Shown piece by piece: positions 3,417 through 39,645 of a DNA stretch of 64,000 nt. Both the position numbers and the translations under genes were made by a program. The first letter of the stretch is position 1. Each line of letters starts with the position of its first letter. The notes below the pieces were generated by a model. The model was not told where the DNA came from, did not search any database, and worked only from the letters and a program-made list of their open reading frames with translations. Source of the stretch: a virus. Lineage: Duplodnaviria; Caudoviricetes. Where the stretch lies: IMG/VR virus record IMGVR_UViG_3300025382_000004, positions 1 through 64,000 of that record. One strand, 5' to 3'.

Positions 3417-3971
3417 ATGTCTATTTATCCTACCGGTTATTATGTTTATGCGTATCTAAGAAAATCCGATAATACACCATATTATATTGGTAAAGGAAAA
3501 CTACACCGTGCTTGGCGTAGAACATATCATAATGTTTCGGTTCCAAAAGATAGAACTAAAATAGTGATTATGGAATCAAATCTCACAGAGATTGGTGCCT
3601 TAGCATTAGAGAGGTTCTATATTCGTTGGTATGGAAGACAAGATTTAGGAACTGGTATTCTAAAAAATCTAACAGACGGTGGTGAAGGAACCTCAGGATA
3701 TAAACCATCTGAAGAAACATTAAAGAAAAGAGGCGAAGCAATATCCAAGGGTAAAAAAGGTAAACCTGCGTGGAATAAAGGTATGATTATGTCTTATAAG
3801 GGTAAAAAGACCGGCCCAAACCCTAAACTAAGTTTATTGAAAAAAGGTGTTGCCTTAGGCCCTCAAAAGGTTGTAAAATGTCCTCATTGTGGCCTTAGTG
3901 GAGGAATCGCTAATATGAAAAGATTCCATTTTGATAACTGTAAATCTAAGGTGAAAGATGAAAAGTATTGA
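3417..3971 (+). mobile_element. GIY-YIG homing-endonuclease-like gene (free-standing), C-terminal CPHC...HFDNC motif
   Basis: YYVYAYL...PYYIGKG...RAW...[11 protein letters not shown]...NLTDGGEG. Confidence 0.85.
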
Positions 3972-19018: not shown

Positions 19019-19076
19019 GATGTCCGTCACGGTGCGACAACACCCACGGACTCTAATACTGTTTAGGAGTATCAGC
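19012..19076 (+). promoter_or_regulatory. late promoter plus conserved two-hairpin leader (copy 3)
   Basis: TAAATA; GTCCGT/ACGGAC covariant stem; TCTAA; ATACT/AGTAT; CAGCATG. Confidence 0.85.
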
Positions 19077-19706
19077 ATGTCTATTTATTCCACCACAAAT
19101 CCGCCACCACATTTCTACATTTACGCCTATCTAAGATCGGATGGAACTCCTTATTACATAGGAAAAGGAACTAATTGTCGGGCCTGGAGAAGGAATAAAA
19201 AAGACTTGATAAAAAGACCCACCTGTGATAGAATAGTTATTATGGAATCAGGATTAACGGAATTAGGATCTCTCGCTTTAGAACGACGATATATTAGATG
19301 GTATGGAAGAAAAGATAATGGAACAGGTATTCTAAGGAATAAAACTGATGGTGGTGAAGGAATGATTGGTCCATCGGATGAGTTTAGAAAAAAAAGGAAA
19401 GAATTATGTGAAAAATCCATATGGATCAATAACGGAAAGAATGAAAAGTTTATAGTAAATGGAAATATTCCTAAAGGTTGGAACAAAGGTAGATTACCTG
19501 AAAAAATAGGTGAATGGTTGAAGAAAAGAAGAAATTATAATGGTTCTAATAACCCAGTATTTGGTATGAAAAGACCTGATTTAGTAGAAAGAAACAAAGT
19601 TCCGCAATATTGGATAAATAATGGGATAGATTGTAAAAAGATCCTTGTTTCGGATTTTGGTAAATACCAAGAACTGGGATTTGTTAGAGGGAGATTACCT
19701 TATTGA
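19077..19706 (+). mobile_element. GIY-YIG homing-endonuclease-like gene
   Basis: FYIYAYL...PYYIGKG...[13 protein letters not shown]...TDGGEG; start at ATG 19077 after leader. Confidence 0.85.
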
Positions 19707-25443: not shown

Positions 25444-25676
25444 TGAATAGACCTCCACAAAAAGGAGCAAACAATCAAGGCAGCGGGTCTCTCGGTGCCT
25501 TGGAACATCGTTATGGTTCATCCAAAAAGTTGGCACAGGAAGCAACTAAGGTTGCCTTGCAGAAAGCGACCGATCAAAAGATGCTAAACCCTGGCAAAAC
25601 TGCCACAGGCCAAATTGCGGATCCAATTGCGTTAGACCCTGAAAAAGCAGGGATGCAATCACAAACTTATAGCTAA
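25443..25676 (+). CDS. hypothetical protein
   Basis: 77 aa, TAATG coupling both sides. Confidence 0.6.
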
Positions 25677-26242
25677 TGTATTATATTTACGCATATCTTA
25701 GAAGAGATGGAACACCTTATTACATAGGTAAAGGAAAAGGTAACAGGGCCTGGAGGAAAGACCATAATGTTCCTGTTCCTAGTAAAGATAGGGTAATACT
25801 AATGGAAACAGGTTTGACTAATGTAGGATCTTTAGCATTAGAAAGGTTCTATATTCGTTGGTATGGCCGTAAAGATAACGGAACAGGAATACTAAGAAAT
25901 CTTACCGATGGTGGAGAAGGTACGGAGGGATGTAAAAATCCTAAAAATATAACCACTAAAAACAAAATAAGCGAGACACTAAAACGTAAAGGTATAAAAC
26001 CACCTTCACGTAAAGGTGTAAAGGCTCCTAAAGAGTCCTATACAAATAGTATATTTGAGATAGAAAACATTACTACAGGTGAGTTGTTTACAACTACAAA
26101 CCTTAGAGAATTTTGCCAGGCGAAGGGTTTGACAAGATCAAGTTTGCAGGCAACAGCACCCTATAGTAATGGTATAAATAAATACAACCAACATAAAGGC
26201 TATAGAATAGCCAAAAGAAACTTTATAGAGAAGGAAAACTAA
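25676..26242 (+). mobile_element. GIY-YIG homing-endonuclease-like gene lacking the leader
   Basis: MYYIYAYL...YIGKG...[13 protein letters not shown]...TDGGEG; coupled by TAATG. Confidence 0.85.
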
Positions 26243-28073: not shown

Positions 28074-28628
28074 ATGTATTATATATATGCTTACATAAGG
28101 CAGTATGATTCTAAAACTGCTAAAGCAGGAACACCTTATTATATTGGTAAGGGTAAAAAATATAGACTAAAAAATAAGAAAAAAGGTCATAATATACCTA
28201 TACCAAAAGATAAAAAATTTATTGTAATTATGGAATCCGATTTGACAGAGATTGGTGCATTTGCTCTTGAAAGATTTTATATTCGTTGGTATGGGCGTAA
28301 AGATTTAGAAACTGGAATTTTATTGAATAGAACTGATGGTGGTGAAGGTGTTTCTGGATATAAAGCAACAGAAAAATCAAAGCAAATCAGGCGCGAAAGA
28401 TTATTAGGTAGTAAAAGAACAAAACAAACTATTAACAATATGATTGAGGGTATATCAAAAAATTGGTTGATAACTTTTCCTGATGGACATAAAGAAATGA
28501 TAAAAAATATGGCAAAATTTTGTAGAGAACATAATTTGTCAAAATCACTTATGCACTTGACATCCGTAGGAAACAGGCCACATCATAAAGGATACTCGGC
28601 GATTAGATATGATACAAGACCTAAATGA
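28074..28628 (+). mobile_element. GIY-YIG homing-endonuclease-like gene
   Basis: YYIYAYI...YIGKG...[13 protein letters not shown]...TDGGEG. Confidence 0.85.
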
Positions 28629-32451: not shown

Positions 32452-34347
32452 ATGGATTTATACAGCCAATTCATATATAAGAGTCGTTATAGTCGTTATC
32501 TGCCAAAACAAAATCGTCGTGAAAACTGGGAAGAAACTATAAATCGTTATCTTGACTTTATGGAAAATCATCTCCAAGAAAAGCATCAATACGATATAAA
32601 GCCTATTCGTTCTCGTTTGTTTGATGCTATTCACGATCTAAAAGTTATGCCAAGTATGCGATCACTAATGACTGCTGGCAAGGCTTTGGAACGTGACAAC
32701 ACCTGCGGATACAACTGCTCATTCTTGCCTGTAGATGATCCAAAAGCATTTGATGAAGCAATGTTTGTCCTCTTGTGTGGAACAGGCGTAGGTTTTTCGG
32801 TAGAGAGACAATTCATCAATCAGTTGCCAGAAATTCCGGAAAAACTATTTGACTCGGAGACTACCATTTCCGTTAGAGATAGTAAGGAAGGTTGGGCCAA
32901 GGCACTTCGTATGCTTATTGCTCTACTTTATACTGGAGAGATTCCAAAGTGGGACTTGACAAAAGTTCGTCCCGCTGGTGCTCCGCTAAAAACATTTGGT
33001 GGTCGTAGTTCCGGACCCGAACCATTACATGAACTATTCAGATTTGTTGTAAAAACATTTCGTAACGCCCATGGCCGCCGTCTGACATCATTAGAGTGTC
33101 ACGATATTCTATGTAAAATAGGCGAGGTAGTGGTTGTTGGTGGTGTTCGTCGTTCTGCTATGATTAGTTTGTCTAACCTTAGCGATGATAGAATGAGACA
33201 TTGTAAATCAGGAAGTTGGTGGGAAGCAAATCCACAACGAGCATTGTCAAACAACTCTGCCGTGTATAATGAGAAGCCAGAAGTTGGCACATTCATGGCA
33301 GAATGGATTTCATTGTATGAAAGTAAATCAGGTGAGAGAGGACTATTCAGCCGTGAAGCATGTCAAACAATCGCAAAACGAAATGGCAGAAGAAATAGTG
33401 AACAACTATTTGGCACAAACCCATGTAGCGAAATTATCCTTCGCCCATATGGATTCTGCAATCTTACGGAAGTTGTTATCCGAGCCGATGACACCATGGA
33501 AACTATTCGTGATAAAATTGAGGTTGCGACTATTCTTGGTACTTTTCAATCTACTCTTACGGATTTTCCCTACCTAAGAAAGATTTGGGTTAAGAATGCC
33601 GAAGAAGAAAGACTACTTGGTGTTTCTCTTACAGGCATCTATGACTCCAAACTATTCAACAATCCACAAGATAAAGAAATCAAGGCACGCCTTGCTTCTC
33701 TCCGTGACTATGCTGTTGAGGTGAATAATGGACTTGCTGAAAAACTTGGTATTAATCCTGCCGCTGCTATTACTTGTGTCAAGCCTTCTGGCACAGTATC
33801 GCAACTATGCGACTCCGCGTCTGGTATTCATCCACGGCATTCTAATTATTATATCCGTCGTGTTCGGGCTGATAATAAAGATCCTCTAACAAAGTTTATG
33901 AAAGAGAAGGGTGTGCCTTGGGAACCAGATGTGATGAAGCCTGATTCCACAACTGTATTTTCTTTCCCACAGAAAGCACCAAAGGGTGCCGTGGTTCGTG
34001 ATGACATTGATGCTATCAAACATTTGGAGTTGTGGGCGGTGTATCAGGAACACTTCACGGAACATAAGCCATCAGTTACGATTACTGTTCGTGAGGATGA
34101 ATGGATGAAAGTTGGTGCCTGGGTTTACGACCACTTTGATGAAATGTCCGGCGTCTCGTTCTTGCCTTATGATGGTGGTAGCTACCGGCAAGCACCTTAT
34201 GAGGCCATAACCAAAGACCTTTACGATGCTATGTTACCTTCCATTCCAACCGAAATAAACTGGGATGAACTCAAAGAGTTTGAGGATAATGTGGAGGGGG
34301 TGCAGACCTTGGCCTGTAGTGCGGCAGGCGGTGGATGCGACATCTAA
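32452..34347 (+). CDS. nrdJ: class II (B12-dependent) ribonucleotide reductase
   Basis: YNCSF, GGVRRSA, TNPCSEI, CVKPSGT, C-terminal [10 protein letters not shown]; no beta-subunit gene nearby. Confidence 0.9.
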
Positions 34348-35075
34348 TGTTTTGATAGTTTGGCCTTGGATATAGCCTTACCAACTCTAAGGTTATATTC
34401 GGGGTCAGACCATCTTACTTTGTTTCTATAAGACGCAGCGCAGGACTTATTACAGAAATGTGCGGCCTTTCTATTATTGGCGGTATCTCTTTCTGTATGT
34501 TCTTTACCACAATGCTTACAATGCCAGGTGAATGTAGAAAGTATTTTGTTATAAGGTTCTAATCCTGGCGTTCCTTTGTTATAACGACCTTTTAGTTTTT
34601 CGGAAACTTTTTTGGCAATCTCCGGATCCTTCATGGGATTGTTAGTAAGGAATCTTTCACGCTGTTGTGGATTAGAAATACCTTTGTTAGGAGCAGGACG
34701 ACCAAGTGCCTTTTGTCTTATCTTTTCTCTTGTTTCAGGAGAATGTATTCCAGTTTTTCCTTTATTAGGATGCTGAAAACCAGATTGTCCGTTTCCACCA
34801 TCAGACAGATTGCGGAGAATACCAGTACCATTGTCTTTGCGACCATACCATCTAATGTAGAATCGTTCTAAGGCAAAAGCACCAAGTTCTGTTAGATTGG
34901 CCTCCATAATAATGATTTTGCTATGGTCTTTTGGTGGTTGAGCATTACATTGTCTATGACGGCGCCAGGCACGATTACTTTTGCCTTTACCAATGTAATA
35001 GACATTACCATTCTTGGAAATATATGCGTAAATATAGAACTCTGGTGGTAGATTTGTGGTAGAATAAATAGCCAT
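34344..35075 (-). mobile_element. GIY-YIG homing-endonuclease-like gene, inverted; C-terminal CxxC...C Zn/TRASH-like motif
   Basis: FYIYAYI...YYIGKG...[13 protein letters not shown]...SDGGNG; CKHCGKE...HFCNKSC. Confidence 0.85.
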
Positions 35076-36524: not shown

Positions 36525-36917
36525 ATGTGGTTATACAACAATACACCTTTTGAAGAAATACCCGATGGTTATGTGGCCTTTGTTTACCTTATCACCAACG
36601 AGGTAACAGGTCGTAAGTATATCGGAAAGAAACTGTTTAAATTCACCCGCTCTACCAAACGAAAAGGTAAGCGGGTGAAAAAACAGGTTGACTCCGACTG
36701 GAAAGACTATTATGGTTCTAACAAAGAACTAAATGAGCATGTGGATCTATACGGCAAAGACAAGTTCAAACGAGAAATCCTATATCTTTGTAAGTCTAAA
36801 GGTGAGGCTTCATACCTTGAGGCCAAGGAGCAGTTTGCTAGAGACGCATTGATGACCGAAGATTACTATAATACATGGATTATGGTACGAGTAAGGAAAT
36901 CTCATATAAAGAGATGA
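36525..36917 (+). CDS. GIY-YIG endonuclease II (DenA)-like
   Basis: FVYLITN...YIGKK, YYGS, FKREIL, YLEAKEQF, YYN. Confidence 0.75.
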   Translation: MWLYNNTPFEEIPDGYVAFVYLITNEVTGRKYIGKKLFKFTRSTKRKGKRVKKQVDSDWKDYYGSNKELNEHVDLYGKDKFKREILYLCKSKGEASYLEAKEQFARDALMTEDYYNTWIMVRVRKSHIKR

Positions 36918-36921
36918 TAAA

Positions 36922-37512
36922 ATGATCTTTGAAAATGTTTTTTGTAATTTTTTAGCCTATGAAGATATCATTATTGATAATAATGATATTGAAAATTTTT
37001 GTTATCGAAAAATGAATGAAGATGAAAAAGGTCGTGTATTAACCAATAAAGGTGGATGGCAAAGTAATGATCTTTTTTTGCCGGTTTCGGAATTGTGTGA
37101 ATTAACAAGTATTGTTACTTACAATATGAGAAAACTGGCCAAAAAAATTAATCTTAAAAATGTCCATGATTTGTATTTATCTAATTTTTGGATAAATATA
37201 AATAAAAATTCTAACTCTAATTCACCTCACACCCATCCTAATTCTGTATTAACTGCTGTATATTATGTTAAAGTTCCTTATAAATCTGGTGATATAAGAT
37301 TTTTTAGTCCTATTGAAAATAATCATGATTATTTCAAAGATTTTATGATAGAAAATTATAATGAATATAACTCGACAACTTATACATTAAAACCATCACA
37401 AGGAAAATTAGTATTTTTTCCTTCTTGGTTGAAACACGAAGTTGAAAGCAATGAAACAAATATGGATAGAATAAGTATAGCATTTAATTCAAATTATAAG
37501 GATTTATTATGA
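36922..37512 (+). CDS. 2OG-Fe(II) oxygenase (TIGR02466-like)
   Basis: GGWQS, WININ, HTHP, VYYV, FPSWLKHEV, RISIAFN. Confidence 0.85.
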   Translation: MIFENVFCNFLAYEDIIIDNNDIENFCYRKMNEDEKGRVLTNKGGWQSNDLFLPVSELCELTSIVTYNMRKLAKKINLKNVHDLYLSNFWININKNSNSNSPHTHPNSVLTAVYYVKVPYKSGDIRFFSPIENNHDYFKDFMIENYNEYNSTTYTLKPSQGKLVFFPSWLKHEVESNETNMDRISIAFNSNYKDLL

Positions 37513-38123
37513 AAGAACCAGAAGATCATATACCAGCATATTGTAAATATGACTATGTTGAAAATTTTGTTGTTACCAAAGAGTTTCTAACAAAACAAGA
37601 GTGTGATGTATTTGTAAGAGATGCAAAAGAACTTAATCTTTATGATGCGGAAGTGGAAGTAAAGAAAGGTCCTGTCAAAACATCAGATTTGGTATCGGAA
37701 GTCAGAGATAGTAAAATACATTTCATTAACTATGACAATACAAAGTTTGATTGGTTCTTTCAAAAGATCCTACAAACATTGGTGAATATTAATACAGACT
37801 ATTTTGATTTTGATATTCTTGGATTTCAGGAAGACTTACAGTTTACAGAATACAATGCTCCTTGTGGCCATTATGCAGATCACACCGACAAACTCCTACA
37901 AGGCAATGTTCGAAAACTAACAATGGTTGTCCAATTAACCGATCCTGAAGAATATGAAGGTGGTGAATTGGAACTATGTTTAGGCGGTGAACCATTTGTG
38001 GTACCAAAAGAACAGGGAACATTGGTAACATTTCCATCATACAATCTACATAGAGTAAGACCGACAACAAAAGGCACTCGCCATAGTTTGGTTGGTTGGG
38101 TAACAGGGAGACCATTTAGATGA
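37509..38123 (+). CDS. 2OG-Fe(II) oxygenase (PKHD/prolyl-hydroxylase-like)
   Basis: QFTEY, HTD, RKLT, YEGGEL, FPSYNLHRV.P...G.R.SLV.W. Confidence 0.85.
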   Translation: MKEPEDHIPAYCKYDYVENFVVTKEFLTKQECDVFVRDAKELNLYDAEVEVKKGPVKTSDLVSEVRDSKIHFINYDNTKFDWFFQKILQTLVNINTDYFDFDILGFQEDLQFTEYNAPCGHYADHTDKLLQGNVRKLTMVVQLTDPEEYEGGELELCLGGEPFVVPKEQGTLVTFPSYNLHRVRPTTKGTRHSLVGWVTGRPFR

Positions 38124-38347
38124 ACGTTATAATGTATTCAAAAGATGACTGTGCCTTTTGTGATAAGGCCAAAAACTTGTTAAAGATGAAGGCAATTGAG
38201 TTTATTGAGTATAAACTTGGTAAGGACTTTGACCGTGATACCCTTTTGGAACAGTTCCCAGAGGCACGAACATTTCCTGTAATAACACTTAATAAAGAAT
38301 ATATCGGTGGTTTTAATGAACTTGAAAAGTTGCTGAATACTAAATAA
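38120..38347 (+). CDS. glutaredoxin
   Basis: YSKDDCAFC, TFPVI, YIGGF. Confidence 0.9.
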   Translation: MNVIMYSKDDCAFCDKAKNLLKMKAIEFIEYKLGKDFDRDTLLEQFPEARTFPVITLNKEYIGGFNELEKLLNTK

Positions 38348-38403
38348 GTGTGTAGGCCACGGATTGGCGTCCTGCCTACTCTAATGCTTTAGGGAGCACC
38401 AGC
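38341..38403 (+). promoter_or_regulatory. late promoter plus conserved two-hairpin leader (copy 6)
   Basis: TAAATA; GTAGGC/GCCTAC; TCTAA; TGCT/AGCA over GGAG; CCAGCATG. Confidence 0.85.
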
Positions 38404-39012
38404 ATGTCTATTTATCCTACCGGTTTCTACATTTACGCCTATCTACGCAAATCCAACTTAACACCTTACTATATTGGAAAAGGTAAAGGTGAAAGAGCGT
38501 GGAATAGCAAAAGTCATACAAAAAACAATAATGCAAGGACTCCTAAAGACAAAAGATATATTGTTATTATGGAATCCAATCTAACGGAACTTGGCGCTTT
38601 TGCTTTAGAAAGATTTTATATTCGTTGGTATGGCCGTAAAGATATCGGAACAGGTATATTGAGAAACCTGACTTATGGTGGTGATGGAGCAGAAGGTTAT
38701 ATTTTCACCAAGGAACAACTTGAGAAAAGAGGAAAAAATATCTCTTCGTCAAAAAAAGGAAAACCCCTTACGAGAAAAGCATTGGAATCAAAGAAAAAAT
38801 ACTTTTATGAAGTTGTCTGTTCCGATGGTAATATAGTTAATACAGATAACTTACAACAGTTTTGTAGAGATAATAAACTGGATATGTCAGCCTTATCCAG
38901 AACCGTGAATAAAGAAAGAAAACAACACAAAGGATTCTATGTGAAGAAAAGACTTGACAAAAAGTATATTGGCGGTTATAATGAGTTGTATGATTTGCTA
39001 CTAACTCACTAA
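38404..39012 (+). mobile_element. GIY-YIG homing-endonuclease-like gene fused to a displaced glutaredoxin C-terminus
   Basis: GIY-YIG core; ends [19 protein letters not shown]. Confidence 0.85.
38954..38982 (+). promoter_or_regulatory. sigma70 consensus promoter inside the duplicated glutaredoxin tail
   Basis: TTGACA-17-TATAAT. Confidence 0.85.
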
Positions 39013-39021
39013 GGAACAGAA

Positions 39022-39267
39022 ATGAATATACTTCCTTTTCCTACTGTAACACCAGACATGCGTGTAGGATCTATAGCAGTTACCAAAAATAGAGATACCC
39101 GTAGGACTCGCCGAGAATTCCTAGACAAGGCTAAGGCAACCTTACCTAGAAATGATTATGAGGAACTATTGATGGCTATTTTGGACCCGGAATACTATAT
39201 GGAAGGTGATCACCTTATCCGTAGGGCCGTTGATGATTATTATGACCATGTTGAAAGTAGGAGTTGA
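39022..39267 (+). CDS. hypothetical protein
   Basis: 81 aa, AAGGA SD. Confidence 0.6.
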   Translation: MNILPFPTVTPDMRVGSIAVTKNRDTRRTRREFLDKAKATLPRNDYEELLMAILDPEYYMEGDHLIRRAVDDYYDHVESRS

Positions 39268-39270
39268 GTT

Positions 39271-39543
39271 ATGATTGATAAATATGCTCTAAAGGAACAA
39301 CTACAGAATGGTGTTGTCACCGTTGTTTTTGAGAAGACTGACGGAACGGAACGCACAATGCGTTGCACCCTTTCCGATCTATATGTTCCTCAAGTAGAAC
39401 CACAGATGTTGTCAGAGTATGACGGACAGGTTCCTAAGAACACAAGGCAGATTAATGATAGTGTCCAACCTGTATGGGACATTGACGCAGGAGGTTGGCG
39501 TTCATTCCGTTTGGATTCAGTCAAACAAGTGTTAAGTGAATAA
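39271..39543 (+). CDS. T4-like WYL/Sm-like small protein
   Basis: VVFEKTDGTERTMRCTL, VWDID..GWRSFR. Confidence 0.7.
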   Translation: MIDKYALKEQLQNGVVTVVFEKTDGTERTMRCTLSDLYVPQVEPQMLSEYDGQVPKNTRQINDSVQPVWDIDAGGWRSFRLDSVKQVLSE

Positions 39544-39645
39544 ACCTCTGTTTATGGCTGTTGTCCTATCAACGGCGTTTTGGTTAGTGCTAAAGACCGT
39601 AGCATTTCTTTTATATGGTATAATCGTTCAATGAAGGATAAACAA

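Follow-up and report, generated by a model that had tools for sequence, protein, structure and literature searches.

A homing endonuclease is commonly believed to require an intron, an intein or a gap between genes if the gene that it invades is to survive. The locus described here raises the question of how an endonuclease gene can sit inside the coding sequence of another gene, which of the two gene ends found there is the native one, and why the old end has been kept. It lies in a window of 64,000 nucleotides (the whole stretch of DNA analysed), taken from an uncultured freshwater virus that is known from a fragment of 88.9 kb. Here, the glutaredoxin gene (grx) of a freshwater phage is interrupted by a 665-bp segment (38291-38955, with edges ambiguous by 4 nt, ACTT), in which a grx tail of 19 codons and of foreign origin is followed by a structured leader and by a homing endonuclease gene (HEG) of GIY-YIG type without a stop codon of its own. 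The preferred reading, with a probability of about 0.8, is that a mobile HEG cassette invaded the grx coding sequence and brought a replacement tail with it, while the native tail was displaced, fused to the endonuclease and kept for its promoter.

The interrupted glutaredoxin gene and its element-free relatives

The grx gene (38120-38347) encodes 75 amino acids and ends in LNKEYIGGFNELEKLLNTK followed by a stop codon. Its product matches PF00462 over residues 3-62 (E=3.8e-11) and carries a CAFC active site (CxxC) and the YIGG motif, of which IGG is retained in the replacement tail. The left junction of the segment is a codon boundary, between ...ITL and D, and ACTT is present at both junctions, where the 4 nt fit either side. 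The HEG open reading frame (202 aa, 38404-39012) is in a different frame from grx and in phase with the downstream remnant, and 56 nt of leader lie between the two frames. The preliminary description had reported two grx tails with aligned stops, and its coordinates and sequences were borne out; 12 of 19 residues and 37 of 57 nt are common to both tails (Table 1).

Table 1. Features of the grx locus, in positions of the window
Feature	Position	Strand	Description
Native 5' part of grx (nrdC-like glutaredoxin)	38120..38290	+	Codons 1-57, to ...FPVITL; PF00462; 166/171 nt identical to element-free contig L001
Inserted 665-bp cassette	38291..38955	+	Similarity to L001 breaks off at 38290 and returns at about 38952; a metagenome contig skips from 38286 to 38952
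Replacement (foreign) grx tail NKEYIGGFNELEKLLNTK and stop	38291..38347	+	37/57 nt identical to the native tail; stop inside leader CTAAATAA
HEG leader	38340..38403	+	CTAAATA, hairpin 1, hairpin 2 (loop and 3' arm include a GGAG Shine-Dalgarno sequence)
Homing endonuclease proper, residues 1-183	38404..38952	+	N-terminal GIY-YIG-type domain and C-terminal I-HmuI-like DNA-binding module; no stop of its own
Displaced native grx tail (19 residues and stop)	38953..39012	+	In-frame HEG residues 184-202; 56/57 nt identical to L001
Predicted sigma-70-type promoter, TTGACA-17-TATAAT	38954..38982	+	For downstream genes; predicted start near 38989-38990
First gene behind the promoter, 81 aa, no family	39022..39267	+	ORF; no Pfam or PHROG match
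WYL_2 gene	39271-39543	+	PF10902; next after the 81-aa gene

Among cultured phages, no megablast match to 37500-39600 was found, and protein identity is below 60%. Two adjacent 2OG-Fe(II) oxygenase genes (PF13759, PF13640; 36922-38123) lie directly 5' of grx, and a seventh nuclease gene, which belongs to another family (SegE_GIY-YIG, PF19835, E=1.2e-36), is located at 36525-36917, 1.2 kb upstream of grx. In element-free relatives, only 10-13 nt separate the stop of grx from the start of the 81-aa gene. This gene is optional; in contigs L009, L010, L057 and L058 the WYL_2 gene comes directly after grx or the HEG.

IMG/VR was scanned with the Grx protein and the downstream 81-aa protein, which returned 10 contigs of the window clade where nothing is inserted between grx and the downstream gene. 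All 10 end in the downstream tail type, ...LDK[KE][YF]...[HY] and a stop, and the tails of L001 and L002 are identical in protein to the downstream tail of the window. At the DNA level, the window and L001 share 166 of 171 nt up to 38290, then diverge fully, and come together again in the tail with 56 of 57 nt. The expectation of the preliminary description that element-free relatives would match the downstream tail was thus confirmed. Together with two related clades, 67 element-free contigs (10, 26 and 31) were found, and all of them end in the native tail of their own clade. The downstream tail is native and the upstream tail is foreign. The upstream tail, which shares 37 of 57 nt with the downstream one, is nearest to the ELEKLL-type tails of another grx clade (35/45 nt). 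The upstream tail had also been described as a recoded replacement. Its foreign origin holds; a purpose-recoded copy does not, as it is a homeologous tail closest to the ELEKLL-type clade (35/45 nt), with its stop inside the leader motif. The duplication of the tail is not due to chance, as the local score of the upstream region against the HEG 3' end is 62 here and only 27-35 at the five paralogues that the window also contains, where a tail duplication was sought and none was found.

Contigs from four freshwater metagenome runs were also compared with the window. Run X11 contained occupied contigs and one contig of 543 nt that skips exactly 665 bp (38286 to 38952), with a left arm from an L005-like strain. 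Therefore, empty and occupied alleles coexist in one sample. Overall, the locus presents a presence/absence polymorphism at one fixed site: 67 contigs are empty, and in two clades an identical codon is occupied.

The second occupied clade is represented by contigs L057 and L058, in which a HEG 75% identical to that of the window comes directly after a more distant grx. This grx ends in a replacement-type tail, INGDYIGGYAELEKLMNDK and a stop, with its left junction at the same codon as in the window, and the leader that follows is about 90% identical to the window leader. The L057/L058 HEG ends in ...YNELSNLHQEGKL and a stop, which is the native tail of that clade. Since 26 element-free contigs of the clade end in this type (ITID[SN]...), here too the insertion has moved the native tail downstream and joined it in frame to the HEG. 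The right junction of L057 lies just 5' of TATAAT, and thereafter the sequence does not differ from that of the empty allele L131. On the 5' side of this junction, the sequence (GTTGACAAAAA...) resembles the tail of the window clade and not that of its own, which suggests import from another clade. L057 and L058 also carry a SegE_GIY-YIG homologue at the equivalent place, and the start of their WYL_2 gene is overlapped by the upstream stop (ATGA).

Further backbones point in the same direction. Two more types of native tail are found at the ends of the HEG relatives P0002 and P0003, and P0005 stops early inside the tail. In the protein database, the replacement signature [LV]NKE[YF]IGG[FY]NELE[KT]LL[ND]TK is present on at least five grx backbones, and the replacement tail of the window itself on at least three other backbones (P0123-P0125), of which P0125 is identical to the empty allele L005 in its first 56 residues. 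Judged by tail type, the site is presumably occupied at P0002, P0003, P0123-P0125, P0130/131 and P0140/144. A metagenome contig scan with P0003 returned only distant paralogues (best 49% identity), dominated by the generic PYYIGKGK, and the contig of P0003 was not among them.

A reversed history, in which the occupied state is ancestral and empty alleles arose by repeated precise loss, is highly improbable. Long residence would be allowed by the divergence between the window and L057 HEGs (75% aa identity), which is similar to that of the flanking genes. However, each precise loss would have to rebuild the clade-specific native tail, and loss by recombination would leave hybrid tails, which are absent from the 34 unique empty alleles. 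In addition, identical 5' parts occur with either tail (L005 and P0125), and the relic at the right junction of L057, with its likeness to the tail of another clade, fits import. These results are better accounted for by insertion of a cassette into native grx alleles.

The endonuclease and its leader

Eight residues of the endonuclease (Y9, Y11, Y22, Y23, G25, R31, E69 and N88) are invariant among 26 relatives; they include Y9-I-Y11 and Y22-Y23-I-G25 and are the residues of a GIY-YIG core. When the family profile was searched against the PDB, residues 76-169 of I-HmuI (1u3e) aligned to about residues 84-177 of the HEG product (E=2.6e-4), and a GIY-YIG protein (9u75) was matched with E=0.002. 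The AlphaFold model has a pLDDT of 73, with 85-92 over residues 131-180. Foldseek returned I-HmuI as the top match and the UvrC GIY-YIG domain with a probability of 0.99 and a TM score of 0.52 on the target; these matches are individually weak (E 6e-3 to 2e-2). The Pfam GIY-YIG models stay below threshold, the best being LEM-3_GIY-YIG (E=0.099), and the protein falls in PHROG 15526, which has no assigned function. Homologues in cultured phages carry the annotation Seg-like or intron endonuclease, and their alignment with the HEG product extends no further than about residue 178.

Members of the HEG family end 4-8 residues after HKG[WYF], which places the natural end of this protein at about residue 183. 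The fusion of the displaced tail to the nuclease, which the preliminary description had proposed, is present in the sequence. It is probably incidental, because the normal C-terminus of the family lies before it and P0005 stops early inside the tail. Six paralogous GIY-YIG-type HEGs occur in a 36-kb part of the window (3417-3971, 19020-19706, 25676-26242, 28074-28628, 34344-35075 on the opposite strand, and 38404-39012). They are 48-67% identical over the N-terminal domain and have different C-terminal modules. The opposite-strand copy is convergent with an nrdJ-like RNR gene.

The leader in front of the HEG is a conserved element made up of the last grx codons and the 56 nt between the open reading frames. 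It consists of [AC]TAAATA, hairpin 1, TCTA, and hairpin 2 around GGAG. A search with the exact stem pattern found 15 IMG/VR loci, nearly all directly 5' of HEGs inserted elsewhere, at sites unrelated to grx. With relaxed criteria, 26 distinct leader variants were recovered before HEGs at unrelated sites; RNAalifold predicted 12 pairs for them, and 7 of the 12 show compensatory changes. No Rfam family matches the leader. The case for its structure rests on this covariation, because the free energy is unremarkable within the window (z = -0.42). The CTAAATA motif is not enriched in number (13 found and 15.9 expected), and every copy is oriented with the local genes; it resembles the T4 late promoter and may act as one. 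In T4, HEGs are expressed from late promoters, and their ribosome-binding sites are occluded in read-through transcripts (PMC2988022). By analogy, the leader probably delays HEG expression.

The leader is found in other contexts as well. In L160 (4340-4408, minus strand), L162 and L169, this two-hairpin leader precedes a 215-aa protein unlike the GIY-YIG family, so that this leader seems to be common to different nuclease cassettes. In L159, L166, L168 and L170, the cassette adjoins the 3' end of a host gene whose stop lies within the leader ATAAATAA, like the end of the replacement grx tail.

Equal tail lengths, aligned stops and the ACTT microhomology at both junctions would also follow if the grx 3' end had first been duplicated in tandem, with the HEG arriving later between the copies and the upstream copy diverging in place. 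This order of events is barely credible. The tails share only 37 of 57 nt while the flanks are 97-98% identical to L001, which would need more than 10 times faster divergence of the upstream copy. Moreover, the upstream tail is found on several backbones and resembles the tails of another clade, and it ends, stop codon included, within the leader motif that is seen before HEGs at unrelated sites. The expected intermediates, with two near-identical tails and no HEG, are absent among the 67 empty contigs. The evidence therefore argues for a foreign tail that arrived with the cassette.

It is also unlikely that the locus arose by a single illegitimate or homeologous recombination, with an endonuclease that is now inert and carried along without grx as its target. 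An illegitimate join would fit the 4-nt microhomology, the tail duplication is found only at the grx copy of the six paralogous HEGs on the fragment, and homing cleavage of grx is predicted from sequence alone. Against these points, two clades whose displaced tails differ share the codon of the left junction, and replacement-type tails occur on at least five backbones. In addition, the open reading frame is intact with all family-invariant residues, and empty and occupied alleles are found in one sample. These observations favor a mobile cassette over a passenger.

The promoter in the displaced tail

Perfect TTGACA-N16-18-TATAAT sites occur six times in the window, all on the plus strand, against 0.10 expected. 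The site in the displaced grx tail matches the hexamers at 12 of 12 positions with 17-nt spacing. The five further sites (20965, 30371, 44261, 52098 and 53030) are all intergenic, on the plus strand and just 5' of genes. Exact sigma-70 consensus sites appear to be the early promoters of this phage. The promoter is kept in the element-free alleles of the window clade (10/10) and of the two sister clades (26/26 and 30/31), as had been expected, and the replacement tail reads TTAATA-17-TTTAAT at the same position.

Codon usage was examined across the 34 empty alleles that are unique. Of 66 third-codon positions, only 5 do not vary; the hexamers contain four third positions, and all four are among these 5. 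The Asp codon of the promoter is GAC in 34 of 34 alleles, and both GAC and GAT are used at the other fixed Asp codons. The Ser codon after it, which must start with A at this position, is always AGY, and Ser elsewhere is TCN. In L057 and L058, the YIGG codons between the hexamers have been replaced by unrelated sequence, and the hexamers and their 17-nt spacing are intact. These data show that the promoter hexamers are under purifying selection. A promoter in the displaced tail is credible, and the sequence behaves as a selected one.

The insertion could be real and the promoter-like sequence a by-product of Asp-Lys and Tyr-Asn codons, in a tail that is present only because the insertion is recent. 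The hexamers do encode conserved residues, and the window tail is 1 nt from that of L001, which leaves no time for decay. Nevertheless, such a coincidence is improbable. Coding alone does not account for invariant third positions in the hexamers when 61 of 66 third positions vary, for GAC in 34 of 34 alleles next to a GAC/GAT mix elsewhere, or for a Ser that is always AGY. The other five perfect sites are intergenic and co-oriented with genes, and L057 and L058 have kept hexamers and spacing without coding content.

The preliminary description had also suggested the promoter as the reason for the retention of the old tail. This is supported by the nucleotide conservation of the hexamers in 34 alleles and by their retention, with their spacing, in L057/L058 after the coding content had been lost. 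The displaced tail would thus persist because a selected promoter lies in it. For occupied alleles, the selection argument comes from one lineage, the near-identical contigs L057 and L058. The displaced tail of the window is nearly identical to the native tail, and its retention here could result from recency alone.

Proposed mechanism and related systems

In the occupied allele, the 19-codon replacement tail keeps the conserved YIGG-x-EL residues, so that Grx stays full length (75 aa). A portable leader, with the late-promoter-like CTAAATA and two hairpins, the second including the ribosome-binding site, travels with the HEG family. The native tail, shifted 665 bp downstream in its old frame, provides the last 19 residues of the HEG product and the HEG stop codon. 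Meanwhile, the consensus sigma-70 early promoter within its Asp-Lys and Tyr-Asn codons would drive the genes after grx. Since the replacement tail has lost the promoter, no early promoter would fire into the HEG. The endonuclease would cut empty grx alleles near ...ACACTT/GAC... and spread by double-strand-break repair, which would copy the cassette with the 5' part of grx on one side and the displaced tail and downstream genes on the other as homology arms. Occupied alleles would be immune, either because the insertion parts the sequence that is bound from the sequence that is cut or through the divergence of the new tail. The destruction of the target site, which the preliminary description had proposed, is likewise predicted. 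If the whole recognition site of the HEG lay in the displaced tail, the window genome would be cut by its own enzyme.

A bolder version can be considered, in which the cassette is a self-contained "gene-patch" homing unit that enters coding sequence with a replacement exon end in place of an intron or intein, and the displaced tail serves as an uncleavable operator, where binding of the HEG product would silence the early genes behind it at late stages of infection. I-TevI is known to repress at an uncleavable operator. By analogy, the displaced tail might keep the DNA-binding half-site without the cleavage motif at the right distance, and the target bound by the HEG product would be the codons for its own C-terminus, where the early promoter also lies. 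This extension is doubtful, and the simpler mobile cassette with a retained promoter is preferred.

The closest architectural parallel comes from fungal mitochondria, where mobile endonuclease open reading frames (mORFs) carry a foreign gene C-terminus, as in atp6 of Allomyces macrogynus and atp6, atp9, cox2 and nad3 of Glomus sp. (PMC3630166). In both systems, neither an intron nor an intein surrounds the endonuclease open reading frame that lies in a protein-coding gene, and the host gene becomes a hybrid. The C-terminus is duplicated in both, with a foreign and diverged upstream copy and a native downstream copy that matches close relatives. In contrast, the grx case belongs to a phage and not to an organelle, and its HEG is set off by a stop and a structured leader of 56 nt. 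The Glomus atp6 and nad3 open reading frames are in phase with the upstream gene, whereas the grx HEG is in phase with the downstream remnant. The grx remnant also holds an embedded promoter as a reason to persist, whereas the native atp6 and cox2 C-termini are not transcribed (PMC3630166). The preliminary description had compared the locus with 3'-end replacement by GIY-YIG genes in fungal mitochondria. The architecture agrees with that of the fungal mORFs; the grx enzyme is of GIY-YIG type, whereas three of the four Glomus cases are LAGLIDADG (PMC3630166).

Among T4-like phages, free-standing seg and mob HEGs (segG with gene 32, segA, segE, mobB and mobC) contain promoters of downstream genes inside their open reading frames, which favors retention of the endonuclease (PMC2988022). 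The grx HEG shares with them its free-standing form, a T4-like genome and an embedded downstream promoter. The expression of seg and mob genes is tied to late promoters and ribosome-binding-site hairpins, and the grx HEG leader has a similar layout. Those HEGs are intergenic, whereas the grx HEG is intragenic and brings a patch.

HEGs that split phage genes are also known, such as mobE in nrdA of Aeromonas phage Aeh1 and mobA with gene 60/39 of T4. In these cases and at grx, an essential gene of nucleotide metabolism has been invaded by a free-standing HEG without an intron or intein. However, mobE and mobA leave two pieces whose products reassemble, while grx stays in one piece and the leftover is not needed as protein. 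A limited literature search found no phage report of a HEG with a replaced gene 3' end.

Together, these data would add a third route by which a phage endonuclease may spare the gene it invades, namely an element that carries a spare gene end, and would extend the seg/mob type from intergenic sites to a patched intragenic site. Because empty and occupied alleles persist side by side in several clades, one can read directly where the junctions lie, which tail is of the donor type and in which direction the transfer went. The locus also offers a possible origin for an oddity of T4, where host promoters lie inside HEG open reading frames, as a promoter in the 3' end of a host gene may be taken into the frame of the HEG. 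It is also a clear example from nature of purifying selection acting on a promoter within a coding sequence. In practical terms, the layout of leader and patch tail may offer a way to insert into a phage gene without loss of its function.
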